In this document: positions 6,101 to 62,395 of the stretch, piece after piece | Layout: each line of letters begins with the position of its first letter | Position numbering within the stretch: position 1 is the stretch's first letter | Origin: an uncultured Pseudomonadota bacterium | GTDB lineage: Bacteria; Pseudomonadota; Alphaproteobacteria; RF32; CAG-239 | DNA: 64,000 nt | Assembly (NCBI GenBank): GCA_902761535.1 | Contig: CACWKS010000002.1 | Coordinates: 142,418 to 206,417 of the forward strand | Direction: 5' to 3' | Translations under genes and position numbers: made by a program | The notes under the pieces: model-generated | What the model saw: the letters and a program-made list of their open reading frames with translations, nothing else | The model's database searches: none | Told to the model about the DNA's origin: nothing

Positions 6101-6584
6101 ATCTTCATCCGGCGAGCAGTCTAAACAAATTCGCGAATGGGCACCGCAAATTGCTATCGGTATCCCGATTATGATTCCTGATGACTATGTACCTGATTTA
6201 GGCTTGCGTTTGGGGTTATATAAGCGTATCGGTGATCTTGAAACCGCGGAAGATGTTGCCGACATGCGCGAGGAATTGATCGATCGTTTTGGTAATCTGC
6301 CTAAAGAAGTTGCCAATCTGTTAGCTGTGGTCGAGATAAAAATTTTGTGTTTAGCTTGCGGCATTGATCGAGTAAATGCCGGTGCCAAAGGTGCTTTAAT
6401 CGGCTTTCGTAACAATGTTTTTGCCGAGCCGGAAAAATTGATGAATATGGCTCTATCCTCTTTTGGCGTGCTCAAAGTTCGCCCTGATCAGCGTCTGTTT
6501 ATTGAAAAAGATTTATCATCTTACGAGATGCGAGTTCAAACCATCAAGCAAACTATCGCCCAAATAGCTGCATTACTCAAATAA
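3111..6584 (+). CDS. mfd: Transcription-repair coupling factor Mfd
   Basis: The ORF track opens this frame at 2946, inside recG, but the N-terminus is likely MQYNIDKYLGRI at 3111. It has UvrB-interaction, RNAP-interaction and superfamily-2 helicase motifs (GDVGFGKTEVA, DEEQHFGV) and a TRCF C-terminal domain. Confidence 0.9.
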   Translation: MQYNIDKYLGRIAASLPQGADVCLLGEFARTCDSDILYIVPSGVELANAADLLQYMYPDIRVLRFPAWDTTPYDRSSPNNELIAQRVATLSELAINPSGSSCRVIIASVGAIMQKLPPKKVFINALREIKVGDKLVFNDFIHYAAMNGYTRVEQVFEAGEYALRGDIIDIFPVGTSEPLRIDLFDDEVERIRTFDVMTQRTTGELTSYLFKVMSEVVLDDNTIASFRSQYREAFGSGSIDDEIYNAVSSKNKHIGMENWLPFFYDNQLITLFDYLPAAQIILSDEVNEAIISKENSIADYYKARLEALSIKAPDVAETYRPIAPELLYLRAKQLNQIFSHRRAIKFTSHNLPSSGDVIDCEATPMRSFIGVQKQETAEQTYDELRNFLKDNRQLSRIIACYSSGSRERIYNLLNEHNIADLILCDTWAESLANADNHIVLTVMPLPHGFKGFGLCLLAEADILGEKLTRRKPKKASSQDFIADISSLSPGELVVHIDHGIGRFLGLETLYVDGAPHDCLKIEYAGNSKLFVPVENLDVLSRYGSDDALAELDTLGGTAWAIKKARVKNKIRDIAEKLIKIAAERKLKKAEVFIPPVGIYDDFCARFPYNETDDQQNAIDDVIGDLSAGIPMDRLVCGDVGFGKTEVAMRAAFTVAASGAQVAIIVPTTLLARQHYLNFQQRFAGFPIKIKMLSRLVSAKESAEVIQGLKDGAVEIVIGTHALLSQKIEFCNLGLLIIDEEQHFGVAHKEKIKQLKTGVHVLTLTATPIPRTLQLSLTGVKNLSIIATPPVDRLAARSFVMPFDKVMIKEAILREKNRGGQTFFVCPKIADIPQAEEILHEIVPQAKVLIAHGQIPVKQLEDVMNDFAAGQGDILLSTTIIESGIDMPQVNTMIIYRSDMFGLAQLYQLKGRIGRSKVRGYAYFTTQPKHKLSEIATKRLTVLQSLDTLGAGFSLASYDMDIRGSGNVLGEEQSGHIKDVGISLYQHLLEEEITRLRASSSGEQSKQIREWAPQIAIGIPIMIPDDYVPDLGLRLGLYKRIGDLETAEDVADMREELIDRFGNLPKEVANLLAVVEIKILCLACGIDRVNAGAKGALIGFRNNVFAEPEKLMNMALSSFGVLKVRPDQRLFIEKDLSSYEMRVQTIKQTIAQIAALLK

Positions 6585-6626: not shown

Positions 6627-6978
6627 TTTTTGTTTTCAGCTCGGTATTTTTTTACCTTGCAGAAGAATAATTCCAAGGCAACACCATAGTTCTCAAGTAT
6701 TGCTACCTTTTGTTGCCACTTTTTAATTTCTGCTTTGCCGGTAGGCTTTTGCGCATAAAGCTGACGCAACTCGTCAATTTTGTGATCAACAAATCTTGAG
6801 TTGGCATCATTAATATCAACAGCCTCCTGCAATTTATACCGCAACAAAGAACAATTTTCCTGGCGGTTGACATTTTGATCCCCGGCAGCAACTTTCATTG
6901 CCAACTCGGTAACTTTTGCAGAATCAATCTTATCACTGCCGAAAACGTCATAAATCTCTTTTAGTGTTACTGTTTTCA
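6623..6978 (-). CDS. Small hypothetical protein, possibly DUF2853-like
   Basis: The ORF track gives 6623..7048. The probable start is MKTVTLKEIYDVFGSD at 6978. I recognise no motif with confidence. Confidence 0.45.
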
Positions 6979-27278: not shown

Positions 27279-27450
27279 ACTGGACAAATGAAATAAACCT
27301 TTTAATCTGTTCAGACCTGGTCGGAATTTTTTTTAAAACATAACATAATACTCATCAAATGATTAACAAAACATAAATATTTATTGCAAAATTTTATAAT
27401 GATTATATTATAAGGCAAATTATTGATAAAGCCACAGGAATTCTTTTGCA

Positions 27451-30400
27451 ATGAATAAAAATTTTTGGTTACTGTTGTTTTTTATTTTATGTTGCCCGGT
27501 ATTGACTTATGCCGGCATAAAAACGATTAATGATACGCCTTATGCCAGTGGCAATTCTGCGACGGTTTCATCCGGATCTTCCGATGATAATTCGTTATCT
27601 GCAAATTCCCCCAAGAGCCAAAATCTTCTTAATTCTTCCAATAACAGCAATGATTCGCAGTCTGATTCCCAAGCTGATGGGGACAGTGACGGAGATGGCG
27701 ATGGAAACGAAACTTATCCTGCCTGTTATTTTTCCGGTTGTGAAAATTATTCTTCTTGCCAATATTATGATATAAATAGTTTGTCTGTGGCAAGCAATTA
27801 TTGCAGTTGTGCCGCCAACAATACGAATATTGCCTTATGTGATTCGCAATTACATTATCACAGCACGGTAAATTACAGCGGCTATGCACGTGGTTTAGGG
27901 GTGAGTGCCGACAGTTCACTGACTTTAGTTTCTGGACAAAACAATTATTATTACCTTTCGAATGTAGATTATTTTTGTCCGGTTAAGTTAAATCTTGCAA
28001 CTTTGGGATATACTCTCAATCCTCTTTCCCAAACTTATTATACTGCAGCCCGTAGTCTGGATTGTGATTATGATTCATCAACCGGAGTAAATTTATTTAG
28101 TTACACAGGTATTAACTGCATTCGCCCCGGTTATGGCATCCGAGATGAACAAATAGTCAATCTTTGTATTTATGGGTGTGAAAACAATCCAAACCCTTAT
28201 GATGATATGTTAAATTATGAGAATCGCCCCAAAGGATTGCAGTTTTGTGACGCATTACGCAATCAACGAGATACATCATCTGCACGTAGTTTTTATTCAA
28301 TGGATAGTTATGATGATTTGCCCGCTGCCGCCTCAACCAAATATTATATGTATCGTCCCAATGTAGCCGCGGCTCCTGATGATTTTGATTATCAACTTGC
28401 TGAATGTGCTATCCGGTGCGGGGTGTCCGGAAATGCTGATATAACTCCTATTTGCCAAGGGTGGTATTATTTGCAAAATTGCAGTTCTTTCACTGCAGCG
28501 GAAGAAGCGGCCGGTTATTATATTTCTCCGCTATACAATTCCTATGCTGAAGCTGTTGCCGCGGCTTCACAAATTTCCTCATTTGACATTTGTTACAATT
28601 TTGATTACATATATCGCAAATCAACCTTTATTCGTTGCGGAATCAAACATAGTGCCGACGCAACCAACGGTGTTTATTCTGAAACCGAATGTCGTACCAA
28701 CAACGGCGTTTGTTCTGATACAGAAGGCGACAATTATACTTGCGGTGGCGAAACCTATTGCAAACGCTGTGTTTGTCAAAGCGGATTGTATACATTAGCC
28801 GAATGGTGTGCCGCCAATAATATCACCGAAGATTGCGATACCGAACATTATAAGGGGCAGGGGAACGGATGTAACTATGACGACACCAGCAGCGACTTGA
28901 GCGGTGTTAAATATGCCTCTTGGATATTAGATCCTGATAATCCCGATAATGTTTGTCAGCCGGAAGGGCAATATGTGGCATTAGAGGACATTTCCGCAGC
29001 GACTGTTGACGAGTTACACAACACTTATGGTCCTTCTGCCCAAATAAGCAAATGTATATCCGACAACACTATGAAATGGCAGATTACCTGCAGCAGCGAC
29101 TATGCATATATTTGCGGCATTGTTGATACTCCGAGCAATTGGTGCACCCATGGACATGATTCTTCCACCACCATGCGCAGTGAGGCGGCTTCTTCATCTC
29201 CTCACAAATATTGCACCAGCGGAACGCTCAGCGGCATTTGCGGAGAATCGATTATAATCTCAAACGGCTCGGGAAGCAGTTTAATCCCTGCCTCTTATGA
29301 TTTGAGAATTTACGAAACGGAATCGCCAGAGCAGTGTTATAACAGGTATGGACGTGCGGCCTCGGTTCAGCCCTGTATTTCTATTGATAATTACGGCTCC
29401 AAATACAATTGCTACTATGATTTGCGAGAATACATTTATTCCACAACCAATGATAACGGAGCGGTAGTCTGTCCGGTTCGCCATGATCTTACCGGAAATT
29501 ATATAGTTCTCAATGGGCAGAAGCGATGGGCGGAATGCAATTGTATGGGGCTTTACGATTACACCATTTACACATGTTCCGGCAACGCAACCGTTATGGG
29601 CAAGGCTTGCACTCAGAATTTATCAAATGTAAATTCATCAAATACGTTAATCAACAAATGGAAAGATAAAGTTCCATATGATCAGGTCAACAATCGCATT
29701 TTGGTAAATTCGGTTGACTTATATCCGTATTGCCAATGCGATGAACGCTTCAAATACACTTGTGATGATAATGAAAGAACGTCACCGCTACCTGACAGTG
29801 CTTATTGTCAAGTTGATGGACGCTATTATTATGAATCTTGTCAGTGTACCAAAGATAGCTTGCCGGATCATTGGTCGGATAATTATTTCAATTGCACTTC
29901 CGGCGCACAACCGACCGGTATCTGGAAAGAAGACGGATGCGGCGGCAAGATGTACCAGTGTTCCGATACCATAGTATGCACGTCCGAATATACTCAAACT
30001 TGCAACGGCACCGGACAAATTGGTGTCAGCGGTTATGGTTGCCAAGATGACGAGGGTGCGTATGTTAAATGGAAAAAGTGTCAGTGCGATACTGCCGGCG
30101 GATGGCATACTTGTTTAGAGGATAATCAAAGCGGTGTAGGTGATCCCTGCATTTCCGGAAATGTTAATTATTATCAGTCTTGCTCATGTCCGTCAGGTTG
30201 GGCAACTTGCGATGACGAGCATATACCGGATTCTTCGGTGCAATCATGTCAAACTGACGATGGGATAATTGTCTATGCCTCTTGCGGCTGTAATAGTAAT
30301 TACAGCGAGTGTAGCGGCAACGGACAGGTTGGAGACACCTCATCGGGCATGTGTACATTAAGCGGCGGCACTACTGTTTATGAAAATTGCATCTGCAAGA

Positions 30401-33102
30401 GTGAGTATGACAAAACCTGTCAAGCTGATTCCTCCAATCACATCCGCGGTGATGACAGCGACGTATGCACCATATCCGGTTCTTCCGGTGAAACCGAAAA
30501 TTATTACAAGAGTTGCCGGTGTGAAGATGGCTATATTTTGACCTGCAGCGCTTCAGATCATTTGGTACCGAAAGACTCGGCCGATTATTGCCAAACTGCC
30601 TCCGGTGAAACCATGTATTATAACGAGTGCGAATGTGCATCCGGATATGATAAAACTTGTGAAGGTCAAACTCCGGCGGATATTAATGATTATTGTTCGC
30701 TTAACGGTGTAAGTTATTATACGGCTTGCACCGGATGTGATGCAGCCAGCGGTTGGATTATCTGCAGCGGAGCCAATCAAATTGGTGACGGACAGACTTG
30801 CACCTTCGACGAAACCACATATTACCAGTCTTGTATATGTCCTTCCGGTTGGACGGTTTGTGACGAAGACCATCAGCCTGATTTATCGGCACAGTCTTGC
30901 CAAACCAGCAGCGGAACCACCTATTACGAAAGTTGCATTTGCAACAGCAGTTATACCGAGTGCGGCGGCAATGGTCAGGTTGGCGACACCTCATCGGGCA
31001 TGTGTGTTATTGATGATGACACCACGGTTTATGAAAGATGTATCTGCAACAGCGAGTATAATCTGACCTGTCAAGCTGATTCCGGCAATCATATCCACGG
31101 CGATGCCGATGACGTATGCTCCATATCCGGTTCTTCCGGTGAACCCGAAAATTATTACAAAACTTGCCAATGCGACGATGGCTATACTTTGAGTTGCAGT
31201 GCTTCAGAACACTTAATTCCGAAAGATGCGGCAGATTATTGTCAAATTGTTATGGATGGAGCAATCCTCTACAACGAATGTCAGTGTGCTTCCGGCTACA
31301 CTTTGACTTGCAGTGACACGGACCATTTAGCTCCGAAAGACGATAGTGATTATTGCCAAACCGCTTCAGGCGAGACCAAGTATTACAACGAGTGTGAATG
31401 TGCTTCCGGATATGACAAAACCTGTTCGGCTGCTGACGGCTTATCTCCGGTTGATAGCAGTGACTATTGCTCGCTTAACGACGTAAGTTATTACACGGCT
31501 TGTACTTGTGATACTTCCGAGGGGTGGGTTATTTGCGACAATAATCAAATCGGCAATGGACCTGTTTGCACCTCCGGCGGCACCGATTATTATCAGTCTT
31601 GCTCTTGTCCGGAAGGATGGGTTACTTGTAACGGCGACCACCAAAGCGGCAACGAACCGGCTTGTATTTCCGGCGGCACCAGCTATTATCAGTCTTGCTC
31701 TTGTCCGGCGGGGTGGGTTGCCTGCGGAACTAACCAAATCGGAAACGGAACGCCTTGCGTATTGGGCGAAACCGAGTATTACCAGTCTTGCTCTTGTCCT
31801 TCCGACTGGACAATCTGTACCGATAACAAGGTCGGCGATCCGTCGTTAGGTTCTTGCACCATTGGCGGCACCACTGTTTATGAAAATTGTATTTGCCCAT
31901 CTCACTGGATTACTTGCGAAACTAACCAAAACGGGGTAGGAGAGGTTTGCACCTCCGGAGGAATTGATTATTATTCGTCTTGTATATGCCCCATTGATTG
32001 GACGGCATGTTCCGGCAATCACATCATTGGTGATCCGTCATCCGGTGCTTGTGCCATCAACGGCTCCACTGTTTATGAAAGTTGTGCTTGCGATTCCGGC
32101 TATACCGAAAACTGCTTAAATCAAGCTCCGGTTGATGAAAATGATTATTGCTCGCTCAACGGTGTAAGTTATTATACCGCTTGCACCGATTGTGGTGATG
32201 TAGTTAAGAGGTACGATTGCGGAGAGCGCGACGCAGGTCCGATTAACTGTATTCAAAGTTATTGGGATGGAACTATACAGACAACTTACGCTTCTTGCGA
32301 TTGCTCAATACCGGAGATATATGATGGTCGTAGAAACACTGAGGCAATTATCAGAGAGACTCCCCGTGGTGAATTTGCAGCTGATGTCGCTTATCAATAT
32401 CATCCTTCAAATCTTTCTCTATTGGATAATAATTTCGGTATTGGCCGTTGGTATCTTCCTGCTTATGGAGAAATGTATCAAATGGTTAATGTTATAGATA
32501 CCGTTAATTCAGGAATTTCAGCCGTATCCGGCGAAGTGATGTATCCAGATATATCGTATTGGAGCTCATCTGAAGTCGATATGTGGTATAGTATCAAGGT
32601 TTCTAAACAAAATGTAACATATCATTATGTTGATGAACAAGAAAAAAGAATACCATGCATATTTCGCATAGTTACTCTCTTAGAAAACAAACTGCCGGCA
32701 ACTTCTTTATCTAATATTGCCGGTGCCGCCGTCGGCGATGTGGTCTATAGTGACCTGACTTATGACAGCTATACCAATCCTCATTCTGACAAAACTCCGG
32801 TCGGAGTGGTCTATTGGGTTTCCTCTGACAAATCTCGTGTGCGTATAGTTTCTCCTAATCAGCCCAAAATGCTGCCCTGGGGTTGGGGTGGATTTTATAC
32901 TTACGTGAAGCTGGAGGATGTACCCACTGAAGTAGGTGAATGGGAAATGGAAAGTCAAATGTGTTGGGACGATAATCAAAATGAATATGAGTGTTATGAG
33001 GTTGATGGTGGTATAGATATCACAGGTATTAAGAATTTAGGATCGAACATGTTTAACGACGGTATAGGTTGTACTTCTACGGAAATTCTTGACAATCTTT
33101 AG
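27451..33102 (+). CDS. Giant secreted cysteine-rich tandem-repeat protein (1883 aa) with more than 30 EGF-like 4-Cys modules and a distinct C-terminal domain
   Basis: Signal peptide MNKNFWLLLFFILCCPVLTYA. A S/N/D-rich linker including DGDSDGDGDG. About 1100 aa of repeats of the form C-x6-11-YY-x2-C-x-C-x2-G-[WY]-x2-3-C. A Cys-poor C-terminal domain of about 300 aa. Confidence 0.85.
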   Translation: MNKNFWLLLFFILCCPVLTYAGIKTINDTPYASGNSATVSSGSSDDNSLSANSPKSQNLLNSSNNSNDSQSDSQADGDSDGDGDGNETYPACYFSGCENYSSCQYYDINSLSVASNYCSCAANNTNIALCDSQLHYHSTVNYSGYARGLGVSADSSLTLVSGQNNYYYLSNVDYFCPVKLNLATLGYTLNPLSQTYYTAARSLDCDYDSSTGVNLFSYTGINCIRPGYGIRDEQIVNLCIYGCENNPNPYDDMLNYENRPKGLQFCDALRNQRDTSSARSFYSMDSYDDLPAAASTKYYMYRPNVAAAPDDFDYQLAECAIRCGVSGNADITPICQGWYYLQNCSSFTAAEEAAGYYISPLYNSYAEAVAAASQISSFDICYNFDYIYRKSTFIRCGIKHSADATNGVYSETECRTNNGVCSDTEGDNYTCGGETYCKRCVCQSGLYTLAEWCAANNITEDCDTEHYKGQGNGCNYDDTSSDLSGVKYASWILDPDNPDNVCQPEGQYVALEDISAATVDELHNTYGPSAQISKCISDNTMKWQITCSSDYAYICGIVDTPSNWCTHGHDSSTTMRSEAASSSPHKYCTSGTLSGICGESIIISNGSGSSLIPASYDLRIYETESPEQCYNRYGRAASVQPCISIDNYGSKYNCYYDLREYIYSTTNDNGAVVCPVRHDLTGNYIVLNGQKRWAECNCMGLYDYTIYTCSGNATVMGKACTQNLSNVNSSNTLINKWKDKVPYDQVNNRILVNSVDLYPYCQCDERFKYTCDDNERTSPLPDSAYCQVDGRYYYESCQCTKDSLPDHWSDNYFNCTSGAQPTGIWKEDGCGGKMYQCSDTIVCTSEYTQTCNGTGQIGVSGYGCQDDEGAYVKWKKCQCDTAGGWHTCLEDNQSGVGDPCISGNVNYYQSCSCPSGWATCDDEHIPDSSVQSCQTDDGIIVYASCGCNSNYSECSGNGQVGDTSSGMCTLSGGTTVYENCICKSEYDKTCQADSSNHIRGDDSDVCTISGSSGETENYYKSCRCEDGYILTCSASDHLVPKDSADYCQTASGETMYYNECECASGYDKTCEGQTPADINDYCSLNGVSYYTACTGCDAASGWIICSGANQIGDGQTCTFDETTYYQSCICPSGWTVCDEDHQPDLSAQSCQTSSGTTYYESCICNSSYTECGGNGQVGDTSSGMCVIDDDTTVYERCICNSEYNLTCQADSGNHIHGDADDVCSISGSSGEPENYYKTCQCDDGYTLSCSASEHLIPKDAADYCQIVMDGAILYNECQCASGYTLTCSDTDHLAPKDDSDYCQTASGETKYYNECECASGYDKTCSAADGLSPVDSSDYCSLNDVSYYTACTCDTSEGWVICDNNQIGNGPVCTSGGTDYYQSCSCPEGWVTCNGDHQSGNEPACISGGTSYYQSCSCPAGWVACGTNQIGNGTPCVLGETEYYQSCSCPSDWTICTDNKVGDPSLGSCTIGGTTVYENCICPSHWITCETNQNGVGEVCTSGGIDYYSSCICPIDWTACSGNHIIGDPSSGACAINGSTVYESCACDSGYTENCLNQAPVDENDYCSLNGVSYYTACTDCGDVVKRYDCGERDAGPINCIQSYWDGTIQTTYASCDCSIPEIYDGRRNTEAIIRETPRGEFAADVAYQYHPSNLSLLDNNFGIGRWYLPAYGEMYQMVNVIDTVNSGISAVSGEVMYPDISYWSSSEVDMWYSIKVSKQNVTYHYVDEQEKRIPCIFRIVTLLENKLPATSLSNIAGAAVGDVVYSDLTYDSYTNPHSDKTPVGVVYWVSSDKSRVRIVSPNQPKMLPWGWGGFYTYVKLEDVPTEVGEWEMESQMCWDDNQNEYECYEVDGGIDITGIKNLGSNMFNDGIGCTSTEILDNL

Positions 33103-33129
33103 TTAATGCCCTCTGCCCAAATTATTAAC

Positions 33130-34410
33130 CTGTCATGCCTGAGCAACTGAAAGTTGCGAATAAGGCATCTTCGAAAAAAAAACTGTCATGCCTCAATCGG
33201 CGAAAACAAAACGACCAAACCTGTCATGCCTCAATCGGCGCCAGTCCGATTGATAAGGCATCTTCGAATTTTTTAAAAATTCGTAGCCCCCTTATTCGCC
33301 TCATTTTATTCGGCTCAGGGGTGACATTTAAAAAAACTGTCATGCCTGAGCGGTTGCAAACCGCGAATAAGGCATCTTCGAAAAAAAAACTGTCATGCCT
33401 CAATCGGCGAAAACAAAACAAGTAAGGGGATAAGAGGGGATAAAATACTTCCTTTTTTGCTTTATTAAAAAAAATAATTCGAAGATGCCTTACTCCACTC
33501 ACTTCGTTCGTTTCGGGCATGACATTTTATATTTAAACTGTCATGCCTGAGCGGTTGCAAACCGCGAATAAGGCATCTTCGAATTTTCTCTTGTAAAAAC
33601 CTATTTTATGAAATATAATCAACTTTATGAAAGAAATGTATGTTTATATAATGACCAATAAAAATAATACCACATTATATATCGGTGTTACGTCTGATTT
33701 AGTCCGTCGGGTTTATGAACATAAAAACGGCATTTTTAAGGGCTTTACTTCTGAATATAATTTAAATAAGTTGGTGTACTATGAAATAATTGATGGTGAA
33801 ACTCAAGCCATTGAACGAGAAAAACAACTTAAAAAATTTTATAAAGATTATAAGAAACGTCTTATTACAGAAAAGAATCCTTCATGGCAAGACTTATATT
33901 CTGAAATTTGCAGTGAGTAGTAAAAATAATTCGAAGATGCCTAACTCCGAAATATAACTTGTCACCCCTGAGCAACTGAAAGTTGCGAATAAGGGGTCTA
34001 CGAATTTGCCCTTCCCCTTGCAAGCAAGGGGATAAGAGGGGATAAAATACTTCCTTATTTTTACTTTATTAAAAAATAATTCGAAGATGCCTAACTCCGT
34101 TCGCTAACGCTCACTACGGGCATGACATTAATATTTTTTCTCAGGGTTTGGGATTTATGAGTAAAGCGGAAAAAGCAAATATTAAATCGGCTGGCAGTAT
34201 TTCTTTATGCGGCTTACGTCGCGCGCTTTAGTGTGTAAGTTAAGCCGCAGCCTTATGCCGTTTTAATATTTGCCCGCTTTGCGAATATCCCAATGACTTT
34301 TGGTTACTTTTTGTTGCCAAAAAGTAACGCAAATATAAATATAAAAATAAAAATAATTCGAAGATGCCTTACTCCGTTCGCTCCGCTCTCTTAAGGGCAT
34401 GACATTAATA
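33130..34410. repeat. Dense cluster of at least 12 copies, in both orientations, of a 45-60-bp hairpin element family. The core is tgtcATGCC-[internal hairpin]-aataaGGCATcttcgaa, with variants.
   Basis: Copies sit at about 33130-33175, 33184-33214 (partial), 33221-33268, 33278-33328 (reverse variant), 33337-33382, 33389-33420 (partial), 33479-33526 (reverse), 33538-33584, 33925-33950 (reverse, partial), 33957-34003 (CCCC/GGGG variant), 34062-34133 (reverse) and 34340-34405 (reverse). Auxiliary motif aaggggataagaggggataaaatacttcc occurs twice. Confidence 0.85.
33627..33920 (+). CDS. GIY-YIG (URI-domain) nuclease family protein, COG2827-type small endonuclease
   Basis: YVYIMTNKNNTTLYIGVTSDLVRRVYEHKNG matches the GIY-x10-YIG signature, including the conserved R and the E of EHK. 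The likely start is the MYVYIM Met at about 33636. Confidence 0.75.
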   Translation: MKEMYVYIMTNKNNTTLYIGVTSDLVRRVYEHKNGIFKGFTSEYNLNKLVYYEIIDGETQAIEREKQLKKFYKDYKKRLITEKNPSWQDLYSEICSE

Positions 34411-34444
34411 TTTAACCTGTCCTTCCCAAAAACAAAAATAAAAC

Positions 34445-60933: not shown

Positions 60934-61008
60934 TCCGGCTTAGCTCAGCGGTAGAGCAATCGGCTGTTAACCGATTGGTCGCCTGTTCGAATCAGGCAGC
61001 CGGAGCCA
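60934..61008 (+). tRNA. tRNA-Asn (anticodon GTT), CCA encoded
   Basis: Acceptor tccggct/agccgga. D-arm agctcagcggtagagc. Anticodon loop ct-GTT-aa. T-arm cctgttcgaatcagg. Confidence 0.8.
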
Positions 61009-61041
61009 ATAAAAAAATACTCACCCTTGTGGTGAGTATTT
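61009..61041 (+). terminator. Rho-independent terminator after tRNA-Asn
   Basis: tactcacc-cttg-tggtgagta hairpin followed by a T7 run. Confidence 0.7.
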
Positions 61042-61074
61042 TTTTATGTCCCGTCTATCTGATGCGGATAGGCG

Positions 61075-61195
61075 AGCAAAGGGAGCCTGTTTGACCGGAG
61101 GTCGGCTTTTGTATAAGTAAAAGCCGGACGAACGGCGGCTTTAGCCCATCAGGCAGCCGTCCTTATTTTACTCACCCTTGTGGTATTTTTTATGC
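61075..61195 (+). repeat. Degenerate second copy of the tRNA-Asn T-arm / 3' end / terminator, with a ~60-bp hairpin element inserted at the T-loop
   Basis: gcctgtt + [tgaccggaggtcggcttttgtataagtaaaagccggacgaacggcggctttagccc] + atcaggcagccg-tcc + ttattttactcacccttgtggtattttt. The element core is a hairpin (gtcggcttttg...aaaagccggac). Confidence 0.6.
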
Positions 61196-61558
61196 TATTT
61201 ACTTGCTTGTTTTATTGTAAAAACACAATTAACACACAGAATAAAGCTAGTCAATTTGATATTTTAATATTATTGTAATAATACAATATATGCATTCAAT
61301 TATTACCGCCAATATTGAGAATATCTTAAATCCCTTGAATAATACCTTAAATCAAGGTATGCAGTATGCTCAAAATACTTTAATCAATGTAAAAAACGAT
61401 GCCGTACAATTACCTTAGCGAAGGAGCCGGTGCTGTAAATAATTATCTTAATAATCTTGTAAAAAATCAAAATGGACGATACTATATCAATTACGATGGA
61501 ATATCCGATAATAGATTATCGGATATGTTTAAACGGATTGAAACAAGGTTGCGTAATT

Positions 61559-62191
61559 TTGAAAAATAAACTTTTTTTAATATTGTTTACAGTCTTTTCT
61601 TGCGGTAAAGTTTACGCTTTGCCGCAAGATTGGCCATGTAAGGATTTTGTGCTTAATGAGTACCAAAGAATAGAAAATGGTGAGTTTACCATAAATAGCA
61701 TATACCGCGGGCAAGATAATGACTATGCTTTGGAAGTAAATATGTATTGGCAAGCGGAAAAGGGAATTGCCGATTGTGGAACATCCGGTTGTTTAGGAAC
61801 GATTAAAAATACCAAAACCGGAAAAGTGGAAAGTTTAAGGTTCTTTTGCGAAATTTTAGAAGATAAAAAATATGACAAAGCTAAGTGTTATATCGGCGGT
61901 ATTTATGAATATATTTTTAATTCGGATGAAAAAGGAAATTATATTGTTCATTATTGTCCGGATGATATGCAAAAAACTTTGCGCTTTAATAAAAGCAATT
62001 GCGATAAATGCCATTGTACAATGTATAAGTATGATAGAAAGATAAAGGATAAAAACAGTCATTATGAAATGGCTTGTAAAAAAGAGGAAAACAAAGCACA
62101 TTGTTTTAATTATTACGAATATGAAGTTTGGCGTAATTTTGAAAATGCTGATAATGACTATCAAAATTGTGTAGGACTAGATTTTTATTAG
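61559..62191 (+). CDS. Secreted cysteine-rich hypothetical protein
   Basis: The ORF track starts at 61472; the likely start is a TTG at about 61559, giving signal peptide LKNKLFLILFTVFSCGKVYA. The mature part has 14 Cys, including CDKCHC. Confidence 0.5.
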   Translation: MKNKLFLILFTVFSCGKVYALPQDWPCKDFVLNEYQRIENGEFTINSIYRGQDNDYALEVNMYWQAEKGIADCGTSGCLGTIKNTKTGKVESLRFFCEILEDKKYDKAKCYIGGIYEYIFNSDEKGNYIVHYCPDDMQKTLRFNKSNCDKCHCTMYKYDRKIKDKNSHYEMACKKEENKAHCFNYYEYEVWRNFENADNDYQNCVGLDFY

Positions 62192-62262
62192 CTGAATATT
62201 CTAAGAGTGCTCAACATAAAGCAGCCCCGCAAATTGTAAACAAAAACGGTATAGACAGTTAA

Positions 62263-62395
62263 ACAATTGGTCGCCTGTTTGACTGGAGGTCGGCTTTTGC
62301 GGCTGTAAAAGCCGGACGAACGGCGGCTTTATCCCGTCCGGTAGCCGGAGCCAATAAAAAAATACTCACCCTTGTGGTGAGTATTTTTTTAGTCG
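62263..62395 (+). repeat. Third copy of the tRNA-Asn 3' half (intact acceptor end and terminator), interrupted at the same T-loop position by the same hairpin element
   Basis: ttggtcgcctgtt + [tgactggaggtcggcttttgcggctgtaaaagccggacgaacggcggctttatcccgtccggt] + agccggagccaataaaaaaatactcacccttgtggtgagtattttttt. The segment after the insertion is identical to the 3' end of the real tRNA-Asn plus its terminator. Confidence 0.65.

Follow-up and report, generated by a model that had tools for sequence, protein, structure and literature searches.

The gene at issue lies in the window, by which the whole stretch of 64,000 nucleotides analysed is meant, and carries long repeats that are recognizable in the DNA itself. 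The question was whether these copies are recent or kept alike by conversion, which would make the locus hypervariable, with lengths that differ among strains, as in contingency, antigenic-variation or Periscope loci, or whether they are older. The reading favored here, with a probability of about three in four, is that a block of six modules was duplicated in frame long ago in a gene for a giant exported Cys-rich protein, with old patches of gene conversion and a stable length.

The only long ORF spanning the repeat region was located at 27451-33102 on the plus strand. It encoded 1883 aa, including 146 Cys (7.8%), and the reading frame was open through all codons. The features were as follows.

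27451..27516, + strand: predicted Sec signal peptide (MNKNFWLLLFFILCCPVLTYAG), read from the translation; the N-terminus is conserved in orthologs
27517..30114, + strand: N-terminal region (aa 23-888), unrepeated, conserved and Cys-rich, with many invariant Cys, Tyr and Gly in the ortholog alignment
30115..30765, + strand: super-repeat 1, six four-Cys modules a1-f1, from self-comparison and module alignment
30115-30210, 30211-30312 and 30313-30420, + strand: modules a1, b1 and c1 within super-repeat 1
30421-30546, 30547-30660 and 30661-30765, + strand: modules d1, e1 and f1 within super-repeat 1
30316..30546, + strand: least-diverged tract, copy 1 (end of module c and module d), a probable old gene-conversion tract
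30766..31536, + strand: super-repeat 2, modules a2 b2 c2 d2 e2x e2 f2, 73% nt and 69% aa identity to super-repeat 1
30967..31197, + strand: least-diverged tract, copy 2, a probable conversion tract on the same evidence as copy 1
31198..31311, + strand: e2x, an additional e-type module of 38 codons inside super-repeat 2, family spacing 114
31537..32115, + strand: third, irregular array of short modules a3 a4 a5 c3 a6 c4, periods 93-96 and 195 nt
32116..32205, + strand: f3, terminal partial f-type module, with the third copy of string C (cgcttaacggtgtaagttattatacggcttgcacc)
32206..33099, + strand: C-terminal domain (aa 1586-1883), unrepeated, probably Lcl_C/DUF1566-like

About 20 mini-modules, each with four Cys and 31-42 aa long, made up the repeat region; they shared the pattern C-x(8-14)-C-x-C-x(5-7)-C and a conserved Tyr-Tyr/Val-Tyr and fell into six sequence types (a-f) in the order abcdef / abcde'ef / aaacac f. 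The six-module block abcdef measured 651 nt (217 codons) and was present in two copies, the second with one additional e module, followed by the irregular array of a and c modules and an incomplete f. Because e2x was inserted in super-repeat 2, the period shifted from 651 to 765/774 nt. Modules of the same type were 47-84% identical in amino acids and adjoining modules mostly 20-44%, and the array thus fits the rule of dissimilar neighboring domains. The N-terminal region gave no match in a Pfam search; between the window and its sister species it showed 71% aa identity and a dS of 1.29.

Self-comparison of the gene gave clear diagonals, all of them in frame. When windows of 60 nt with at least 45 matches were counted per offset, 214 were found at 651 (best 54/60), 51 at 765, 41 at 1455, 38 at 96, 22 at 774 and 13 at 681, and no out-of-frame offset exceeded 35/60. 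The repeats reported earlier at periods of 650-770 nt are therefore real and far beyond chance. The three strings quoted as examples were found near the positions given for them, each recurring with mismatches: string A at 30316 and 30967 (3/39), string B at 30586 and 31351 (8/53), and string C at 30698, 31472 (5/35) and 32153 (2/35). They proved to be the best-conserved islands, at 85-94% identity, and the description of the super-repeats as near-identical or almost verbatim did not hold: over 215 aligned codons the two copies were 72.9% identical in nucleotides and 69.3% in amino acids. The longest exact runs in the gene were 25 nt (31588/31684, in the 96-nt sub-repeat of the third array), 23 nt (30470/31121, the longest on the 651-nt diagonal), 21 nt (30334/30985) and 20 nt (30703/32158). 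Outside the gene, the spacer at 33103-34444 holds the truly near-identical DNA repeats of the window, exact up to 57 nt; an Rfam search of the window with this downstream spacer returned two tRNAs only and no match for the spacer repeats.

It had also been held that the identity of the DNA goes beyond protein conservation. For most of the array the likeness turned out to be mainly at the protein level: identity between super-repeats 1 and 2 was 85, 79 and 55% at codon positions 1, 2 and 3, with a dN of 0.20 and a dS of 1.40, comparable to the dS that separates the window from its sister species (1.29). The DNA likeness is what remains when a block was duplicated long ago and purifying selection has since preserved its Cys/Tyr/Gly scaffold (dN/dS about 0.15, dS about 1.4).

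Conserved amino acids and codon bias, with no DNA-level exchange at any time, would account for most of the array. Synonymous divergence of modules a, b and e was saturated (e nonetheless being 84% identical in protein), and the same codon was used for identical amino acids about as often as expected in a (9 vs 6.5) and b (6 vs 8.9). Across the two super-repeats, however, the same codon was found at 93 of 145 such positions against 63.6 expected from the codon usage of the gene (z = 5.2), and the excess was concentrated in modules c-d. Module d alone reached 27/31 against 13.7 expected, with 84% nt identity and 81% identity at third positions. Per-module dS, a noisy measure for modules so short, was 2.4 (a), saturated (b), 0.97 (c), 0.33 (d), saturated (e) and 1.2 (f). 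The segment 30316-30543 matched its copy at +651 in 182 of 228 nt, and the clustering of similarity was non-random in a scan permutation (high-identity scan window, p = 0.017-0.022; low-identity scan window, p = 0.004). Together with the grouping of modules c-f by species (below) and an exact match of 52 nt between f1 and f2 of the sister species, these values make a history free of exchange distinctly improbable. A few stretches are more alike in DNA than the duplication alone would leave them; old gene conversion explains them best, the clearest in this genome being about 230 nt in c-d.

Of the original prediction of recent duplication or conversion, the part that stands is past DNA-level exchange between the repeats, from the codon excess and the species comparison; the recency does not. 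The dS of the whole was 1.4, and even the youngest tract, at 0.33, was about sevenfold older than the divergence between strains (0.049). The super-repeats of the sister species were likewise 72-73% identical in nucleotides (dS 1.3-2.0), and because of its 52-nt f1/f2 match, short-tract conversion is taken to recur sporadically. With copies that are 27% diverged and perfectly identical over no more than 23-25 nt, RecA should by now seldom mediate unequal exchange between them.

Length stability was evaluated in closely related alleles. The gene was identical base for base in the window and in two other loci (L001 and L002), and the identical protein was present in independent assemblies. A divergent allele of the same species (L003, 2%) differed by 112 substitutions and no indel, and was again 5652 nt long. 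Two alleles of the sister species (P0002 and P0007) were identical at 1680 of 1692 positions without gaps, and both members of a close-species pair (L007 and L008) encoded 1191 aa. The predicted strain-to-strain variation in length was thus not found, the gene being of equal length in each close pair available, in a sample that comprised two distinct alleles for each species and came entirely from metagenomes assembled from short reads, where rare length variants would go unnoticed. Strains differed by a dS of 0.049 and species by 1.29, and the number of modules differed only between deeper lineages. A search for more alleles in a GTDB genome scan gave four loci, all from other species; a JGI metagenome scan gave three loci and no strain of the window's species beyond L003.

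The divergent allele was also examined for the direction of its changes. At sites that differ between the copies, 17 of its 31 changes matched the paralog, against about 10 expected under random substitution, which may point to conversion that continues at a low level or may simply reflect shared constraint. Relative to the window allele, 17 changes homogenized the copies, 14 drove them apart and 14 were neutral, with blocks 72.1% vs 72.5% identical, so that no clear signal of ongoing conversion was obtained between the two alleles. One patch of this allele (30111-30166) contained 20 substitutions and resembled the sister-species sequence. Its best match to the other repeats was 35/66, and a source within the gene was rejected; the sequence comparison suggests import by recombination between lineages.

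A collapsed or chimeric array produced by metagenome assembly was considered, as all the sequences are metagenome-assembled and a related contig (L011) ends within the repeat region. Such an artifact is extremely improbable. Copies differing at 27% of sites are too diverged to collapse, the identical gene was recovered in two other assemblies from different pipelines (possibly of related samples), and the array was colinear in the 2%-divergent allele from another sample, with the frame intact over 1883 codons.

The giant gene was syntenic (LepA-GNAT-giant-CheR) in related rumen Alphaproteobacteria MAGs, and this allowed the duplication to be placed relative to speciation. Copies 1 and 2 of the window were compared with copies 1 and 2 of the sister species, and nucleotide quartet sites were scored for orthology versus within-species grouping. 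The ratios were 7:2 for module a, 5:7 for b, 1:8 for c, 1:11 for d, 1:12 for e and 2:15 for f. Within-species grouping was therefore favored 46:5 in modules c-f pooled; the full nucleotide counts of modules a and b were 7:2:3 and 5:7:0, and the amino acid counts 2:0 and 3:1. Signatures specific to one species and common to all its copies were also observed (SLNGVSYY vs ELNGTRYY; NECECASGYDKTC vs ACQCASGYTETC).

Separate block duplications in each lineage after the species split would account for the grouping of c-f by species and for the block number, which was two and a fraction in the window and nearly three in the sister species. This account is unlikely. Module a1 of a third species had its nearest counterparts in the a1 modules of the other two (0.72-0.78 aa identity) and was further from the later a copies of its own array (0.50-0.61), b1 shared 'QTDDG' across species, and block order and boundaries were alike in the window and the sister species. 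A range of dS from 0.33 to saturation along one block is likewise not predicted by a single event. Since a1 and b1 keep positional orthology, at few informative sites, the sequences suggest that the block duplication predates the split of the window species from its two nearest relatives. Under the reading of an old block duplication, the block would have arisen before that split by in-frame unequal recombination or slippage, and later short-tract gene conversion would have homogenized modules c-f within each lineage. The gene is a clean, small case of mosaic concerted evolution within one gene, with positional orthology in a-b and lineage homogenization in c-f. Beyond the conserved core, the number of modules by lineage was 19, 16, 13, 8, 8, 8 and 15.

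Contingency and cassette systems include phase variation by simple-sequence repeats and conversion of the pilE/pilS, msp2 or vlsE type. The likeness of the present gene to them was limited to the general idea that repeats in surface genes can recombine. No A/T homopolymer of at least 7, no C/G homopolymer of at least 6 and no 2-7-nt repeat with at least four copies was found in the gene, where TRF reported only two trivial two-copy arrays; the gene has no simple-sequence tract of the kind that, in the ORF or promoter of a contingency locus, shifts frame or expression. A T8 run lies upstream, at 27327, and both alleles were colinear there, almost without differences. Neither silent module copies nor other donor cassettes occurred elsewhere in the 64-kb window, and no paralogs were present among five family members from a word-based search.

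What speaks for a hypervariable locus is the set of 85-94% islands, the same-codon excess (z = 5.2), the grouping of c-f by species with the 52-nt match in the sister species, the difference in module number between species and the slight surplus of homogenizing changes (17/31). Against these stand the 73% nt identity with a dS of 1.4, 55% identity at third positions and no run above 23 nt on the main diagonal, a youngest tract far older than the strains, three close pairs without an indel, a strain-specific patch with no intragenic source, the lack of simple-sequence repeats in the gene, and the lack of further module copies in the window. We therefore give a recent, conversion-kept or length-variable locus very little credence, and the proposed contingency or antigenic-variation role largely fails on the old, diverged copies and the equal allele lengths, in a small sample of strains. 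The gene is judged to hold an array of domain repeats of an ordinary kind, old and slow to evolve, and to belong to a surface-protein family that is uncharacterized. The repeats that look verbatim are in fact 27% diverged and stable, and the locus should therefore not be listed as a candidate for contingency or antigenic variation. The correction has no bearing on any long-standing open question.

Two families of surface proteins offered closer comparisons. Periscope proteins and fibrillar adhesins with tandem-domain stalks, such as SasG, Aap, Rib and Sgo_0707, carry repeats that change in number between close strains; the screen for them took units longer than 50 aa that were 80% identical or more (Whelan et al. 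2021, PMC8201768). The present protein resembles them in being large and exported, in its long array of small modules beside an unrepeated putative binding domain, in a repeat number that differs between lineages, and in traces of intragenic DNA exchange. It differs in that its 217-aa blocks are only 69.3% identical in amino acids and 72.9% in nucleotides, in the equal length of close strains (two alleles per species, short-read assemblies), and in modules that are four-Cys mini-units without a Pfam family. As the protein of a Gram-negative organism, it also lacks an LPXTG anchor. The second comparison is Lcl of Legionella, a surface or secreted adhesin with a stalk and a DUF1566 head, whose stalk is a collagen-like GXY repeat, a VNTR differing in number between strains, and the number of stalk repeats matters for binding (PMC11162425, PMC6460258). 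The order of signal peptide, repetitive stalk and C-terminal domain, here probably of the DUF1566/Lcl_C type, is common to both; the stalk here, however, consists of Cys-rich modules with no GXY in the translation, no stalk polymorphism was seen, and the C-terminal domain of the window scored under all Pfam thresholds.

The repeat region reached no Pfam or NCBIfam family at threshold, whether the whole protein or six sub-regions were searched. The best family score there was that of EGF_TEN, the teneurin EGF region (18 bits, cut-off 65, E = 0.0024). A PDB sequence search with the whole protein and a fold search with the modules gave no match, and a super-repeat profile matched 31 proteins among 1.84 billion representatives. 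In AF2, the best model of super-repeat 1 reached a pLDDT of 83, with about four short strands in each module; the other four of the five models were poor (pLDDT 64-39). EGF-like and similar eukaryotic arrays consist of disulfide-rich mini-domains. The present modules are alike in their 30-40 residues, fixed Cys spacing, long arrays and predicted all-beta short strands, as well as in the weak sub-threshold teneurin EGF similarity. From the model, each module is probably a small beta unit held together by disulfide bonds. A chain of such units would make a long stalk that carries the C-terminal Lcl_C/DUF1566-like head on the cell surface or past it, and the alternation of module types would leave adjoining modules mostly 20-44% identical. 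The beta-module model and the domain order together predict a fibrillar-adhesin-like protein. This uncharacterized family of giant Cys-rich exported proteins with a probable Lcl_C-like head, in rumen Alphaproteobacteria, could be of modest interest for the attachment of uncultured bacteria to particles, protists or host surfaces.

As a tentative proposal, which we hold to be somewhat less probable than its opposite, the modules may form an undescribed bacterial family of disulfide-rich mini-domains that build the stalks of giant surface proteins, these proteins being confined to a small clade of Alphaproteobacteria from the ruminant gut. If so, the stalk would evolve by block duplication with sporadic short-tract conversion, and the Lcl_C-like head would be the part on which diversifying selection acts between strains. 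In a bolder variant of this proposal, array length would vary within populations and be masked by short-read assemblies.

The assignment of the head was based on the orthologs. The C-terminus of an ortholog matched PF07603 with E = 1.1e-7 and 32.5 bits (cut-off 34.9), and 13 of 23 homologs of the domain carried PF07603, several having flagellin domains as well. The window's own C-terminal domain had no Pfam match at E <= 5, and its AF2 model, from a four-sequence alignment, had a pLDDT of 28. A C-terminal profile matched PDB 4eps_A (E = 0.006) over the WY.P..GEL and YWSS motifs. By sequence, the domain is thus probably Lcl_C/DUF1566-like. Between strains, this domain differed at 14 amino-acid-changing codons vs 1 synonymous codon.

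The repeats of the giant gene are real. They form a domain-repeat architecture that is ordinary and old, and in which past gene conversion has left traces. The gene encodes a protein with a hydrophobic, signal-like N-terminus and is overlapped on either strand by short ORFs only. Modules of 31-42 aa follow one another from residue 889 onward; each has a C-x-C-x(3-9)-C ending, a single Cys further upstream and a YY/VY motif. Six module sequence types (a-f) were distinguished, in the order abcdef / abcde'ef / aaacac / partial f, and the identity of adjacent modules was mostly 20-44%. The 651-nt period corresponds to the six-module block, and three further codons in module f give a period of 774 for f. 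The features are as follows.

27451-33102, + strand: giant ORF, 1883 aa with 146 Cys
31198-31311, + strand: extra e module of 114 nt, which moves the period to 765 for e
32116-32205, + strand: terminal partial f module, where the f string occurs for the third time
32206-33099, + strand: non-repeated C-terminal domain, 3' of the module array

The three strings quoted in the original prediction as recurring almost verbatim were all located in the window: the first at 30316 and again at 30967 (3/39 mismatches), the second at 30586 and 31351 (8/53), and the third at 30698, 31472 (5/35) and 32153 (2/35). The gene was compared with itself by counting, at each offset, the 60-nt windows in which 45 or more positions matched. 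Offset 651 gave 214 windows (best 54/60), followed by 765 (51), 1455 (41), 96 (38), 774 (22) and 681 (13). Strong diagonals were found only in-frame, the best out-of-frame offset reaching 35/60, and therefore the repeats and the periods of 650-770 nt noted for them are genuine. Contrary to what had been proposed, the DNA is not near-identical. The two super-repeats (30115-30765 and 30766-31536) shared 72.9% DNA and 69.3% protein identity over 215 aligned codons, with 85, 79 and 55% identity at codon positions 1, 2 and 3, dN of 0.20 and dS of 1.40 (NG86). The four longest exact repeats in the gene were 25, 23, 21 and 20 nt, and Tandem Repeats Finder reported nothing at periods of 650-770 nt.

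The between-block dS exceeded about 30-fold the value separating the two alleles of this species (0.049), and was similar in magnitude to the 1.29 measured in the N-terminal region between the window gene and its sister-species ortholog. Along the block, modules a, b and e had a dS of 2.4 or saturated values, with 84% protein identity in e despite the high dS; module c had 0.97, module d 0.33 and module f 1.2. Of 145 shared amino acids, 93 used the same codon, where the codon usage of the gene itself predicts 63.6 (z = 5.2); the excess lay mostly in c-d, with 27/31 in module d against 13.7 expected. Identity was clustered non-randomly (permutation p ~0.02 for the high-identity scan window and 0.004 for the low-identity one), and tract 30316-30543 matched its partner copy at 182/228 nt. 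Of the proposed recent duplication or gene conversion, past conversion has probably left traces in the c-d codon excess; the blocks themselves are old at a dS of 1.40.

The module order of the sister species (P0002; L004 and L005) was abcdef / abcdef / acdef, and its blocks had 72-73% identity, like those of the window. Sites grouping the window and sister-species copies by orthology or within species were counted for each module.

Quartet sites for each module type
Module a: orthology 7, within-species 2
Module b: orthology 5, within-species 7
Module c: orthology 1, within-species 8
Module d: orthology 1, within-species 11
Module e: orthology 1, within-species 12
Module f: orthology 2, within-species 15

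All f copies read SLNGVSYY in the window and ELNGTRYY in the sister species, and all e copies read NECECASGYDKTC and ACQCASGYTETC, respectively. The a1 module of a third species (L011) was nearest to its a1 counterparts in the other two (0.72-0.78 aa identity vs 0.50-0.61). In the simplest history drawn from these alignments, the block would have been duplicated in the ancestor before the species split, and short-tract conversion would then have homogenised c-f separately in each lineage. Independent block duplications in separate lineages run against the a/b orthology signal; they retain a small probability, for this signal rests on few sites. Within the sister species, f1 and f2 shared one 52-nt exact match (L004 gene 3168-3219 and 3813-3864; locus 6168-6219 and 6813-6864), which looks like a short conversion tract more recent than any in the window and points to sporadic recurrence of such conversion.

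Length variation between strains, predicted for a contingency or antigenic-variation locus, was not seen in the alleles compared. The gene was base-identical in two other assemblies (L001 and L002), a further allele of the species (L003) had 112 substitutions and no indel, and the sister-species alleles were gapless at 1680/1692 identity. Two close species (L007 and L008) with 93% core identity each had 1191 aa. The modules after the conserved core numbered 19, 16, 13, 8, 8, 8 and 15, differing only between deeper lineages. Neither simple-sequence tracts nor hypervariability were found in the gene, and neither a contingency locus nor, over the 64 kb of the window, cassette-based antigenic variation is supported. 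RecA-dependent exchange requires ~20-30 nt of perfect identity and falls steeply with divergence; therefore, the present copies should lend themselves poorly to unequal crossing-over. Among known systems, Periscope proteins or fibrillar adhesins come nearest; their repeats have at least 80% identity and vary in number between close strains, neither of which was seen in the sequences compared here.

Differences between the window and L003 were strongly clustered (also at 29721-29820), and the densest patch was 30111-30166 at the start of module a1, with 20 substitutions in 56 nt. An intragenic repeat was rejected as its source (best match 35/66); the L003 version of the patch resembled sister-species sequence ('LGANQSG...'), which points to exchange between lineages. 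The lepA flank was 5% diverged and most of the gene's N-terminal part ~1%, a mosaic typical of homologous recombination between lineages. In the C-terminal domain (window 32206-33099, L003 6226-7119), 14 codons were amino-acid-changing and 1 synonymous-only, compared with 7 and 21 in the N-terminal region (p = 1.8e-5, Fisher) and 23 and 28 in the repeats (p = 9e-4). The Lcl_C-like head domain, and not the repeats, may thus be the target of diversifying selection.

The modules had no sequence match in Pfam, NCBIfam or PDB. AF2 with a 7-row super-repeat alignment gave one confident model (pLDDT 83; others 64-39) of about four short strands per module, for which no structural neighbours were found. 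The C-terminal domain of an ortholog scored 32.5 bits against Lcl_C (PF07603), just below the threshold of 34.9. Among 23 homologs of this domain, PF07603 was present in 13, and some lay within flagellin-like proteins. The domain profile matched PDB 4eps_A (E = 0.006) over the WY.P..GEL and YWSS motifs; AF2 gave no usable model of it. Legionella Lcl is an adhesin with a stalk, variable in repeat number, plus a DUF1566 head. By this analogy, the protein is tentatively, at somewhat less than even odds, a putative Cys-module stalk presenting an Lcl_C-like head.

The gene is flanked by genes for LepA, a GNAT acetyltransferase, CheR, a ChpT-like phosphotransferase and TrmFO, and the order LepA-GNAT-giant gene-CheR was kept in related loci of rumen and omasum MAGs labelled Alphaproteobacteria. 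The family is tiny: word-based searching of 5.8 billion proteins yielded 5 members, and of 1.84 billion cluster representatives no more than 31 proteins matched the super-repeat profile at E <= 1e-3. These were mostly 2000-3000 aa, and the five scanned had no Pfam domains. The protein family is uncharacterised and thus keeps a modest residual interest. Four copies of the a-type module (C..NQ.G.G..C....Y..C.CP..W..C) occurred in an unrelated 806-aa protein (among P0017 and P0021) with a long Cys-poor C-terminal region, and homologs of the C-terminal domain (P0037-P0041, P0054) were fused to flagellin N- or C-terminal domains (PF00669, PF00700); both parts therefore behave as portable surface-protein modules.

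The window's only near-identical DNA repeats lie in an AT-rich spacer of 1.34 kb that separates the giant gene from CheR (33103-34444). Here a ~50-nt unit is repeated about 10 times, in both orientations, with exact matches of up to 57 nt. The unit reads 'TGTCA-TGCC ... variable hairpin ... GA(A/G)TAA-GGCA-TCTTCGAA'; its outer stem of 5 bp shows covariation, two copies having ACCCC/GGGGT in place of ATGCC/GGCAT, and the sequence of the inner hairpins varies. A core of 18 nt was found in 9 copies in the spacer and nowhere else in the 64 kb (0.06 expected), and Rfam gave no match to these repeats. Palindromic units flank one small ORF.

33627-33920, + strand: 97-aa ORF with a GIY-YIG nuclease domain (PF01541, E = 1e-17)

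In the sister species, which lacks the spacer, the gap between giant gene and CheR is 53 nt. Mobile or selfish DNA, inserted in one lineage only, may account for the entire spacer. Elsewhere, an exact 49-nt direct repeat (60998-61046 and 62343-62391) brackets about 1.3 kb, its first copy beginning in the 3' end of tRNA-Asn (60934-61008), which adjoins tRNA-Cys. A second exact repeat of 27 nt (61117/62305) and an ORF with no Pfam match (61472-62191) lie inside the pair, and the arrangement at 60998-62391 could have been left by a small element that integrated at the tRNA.
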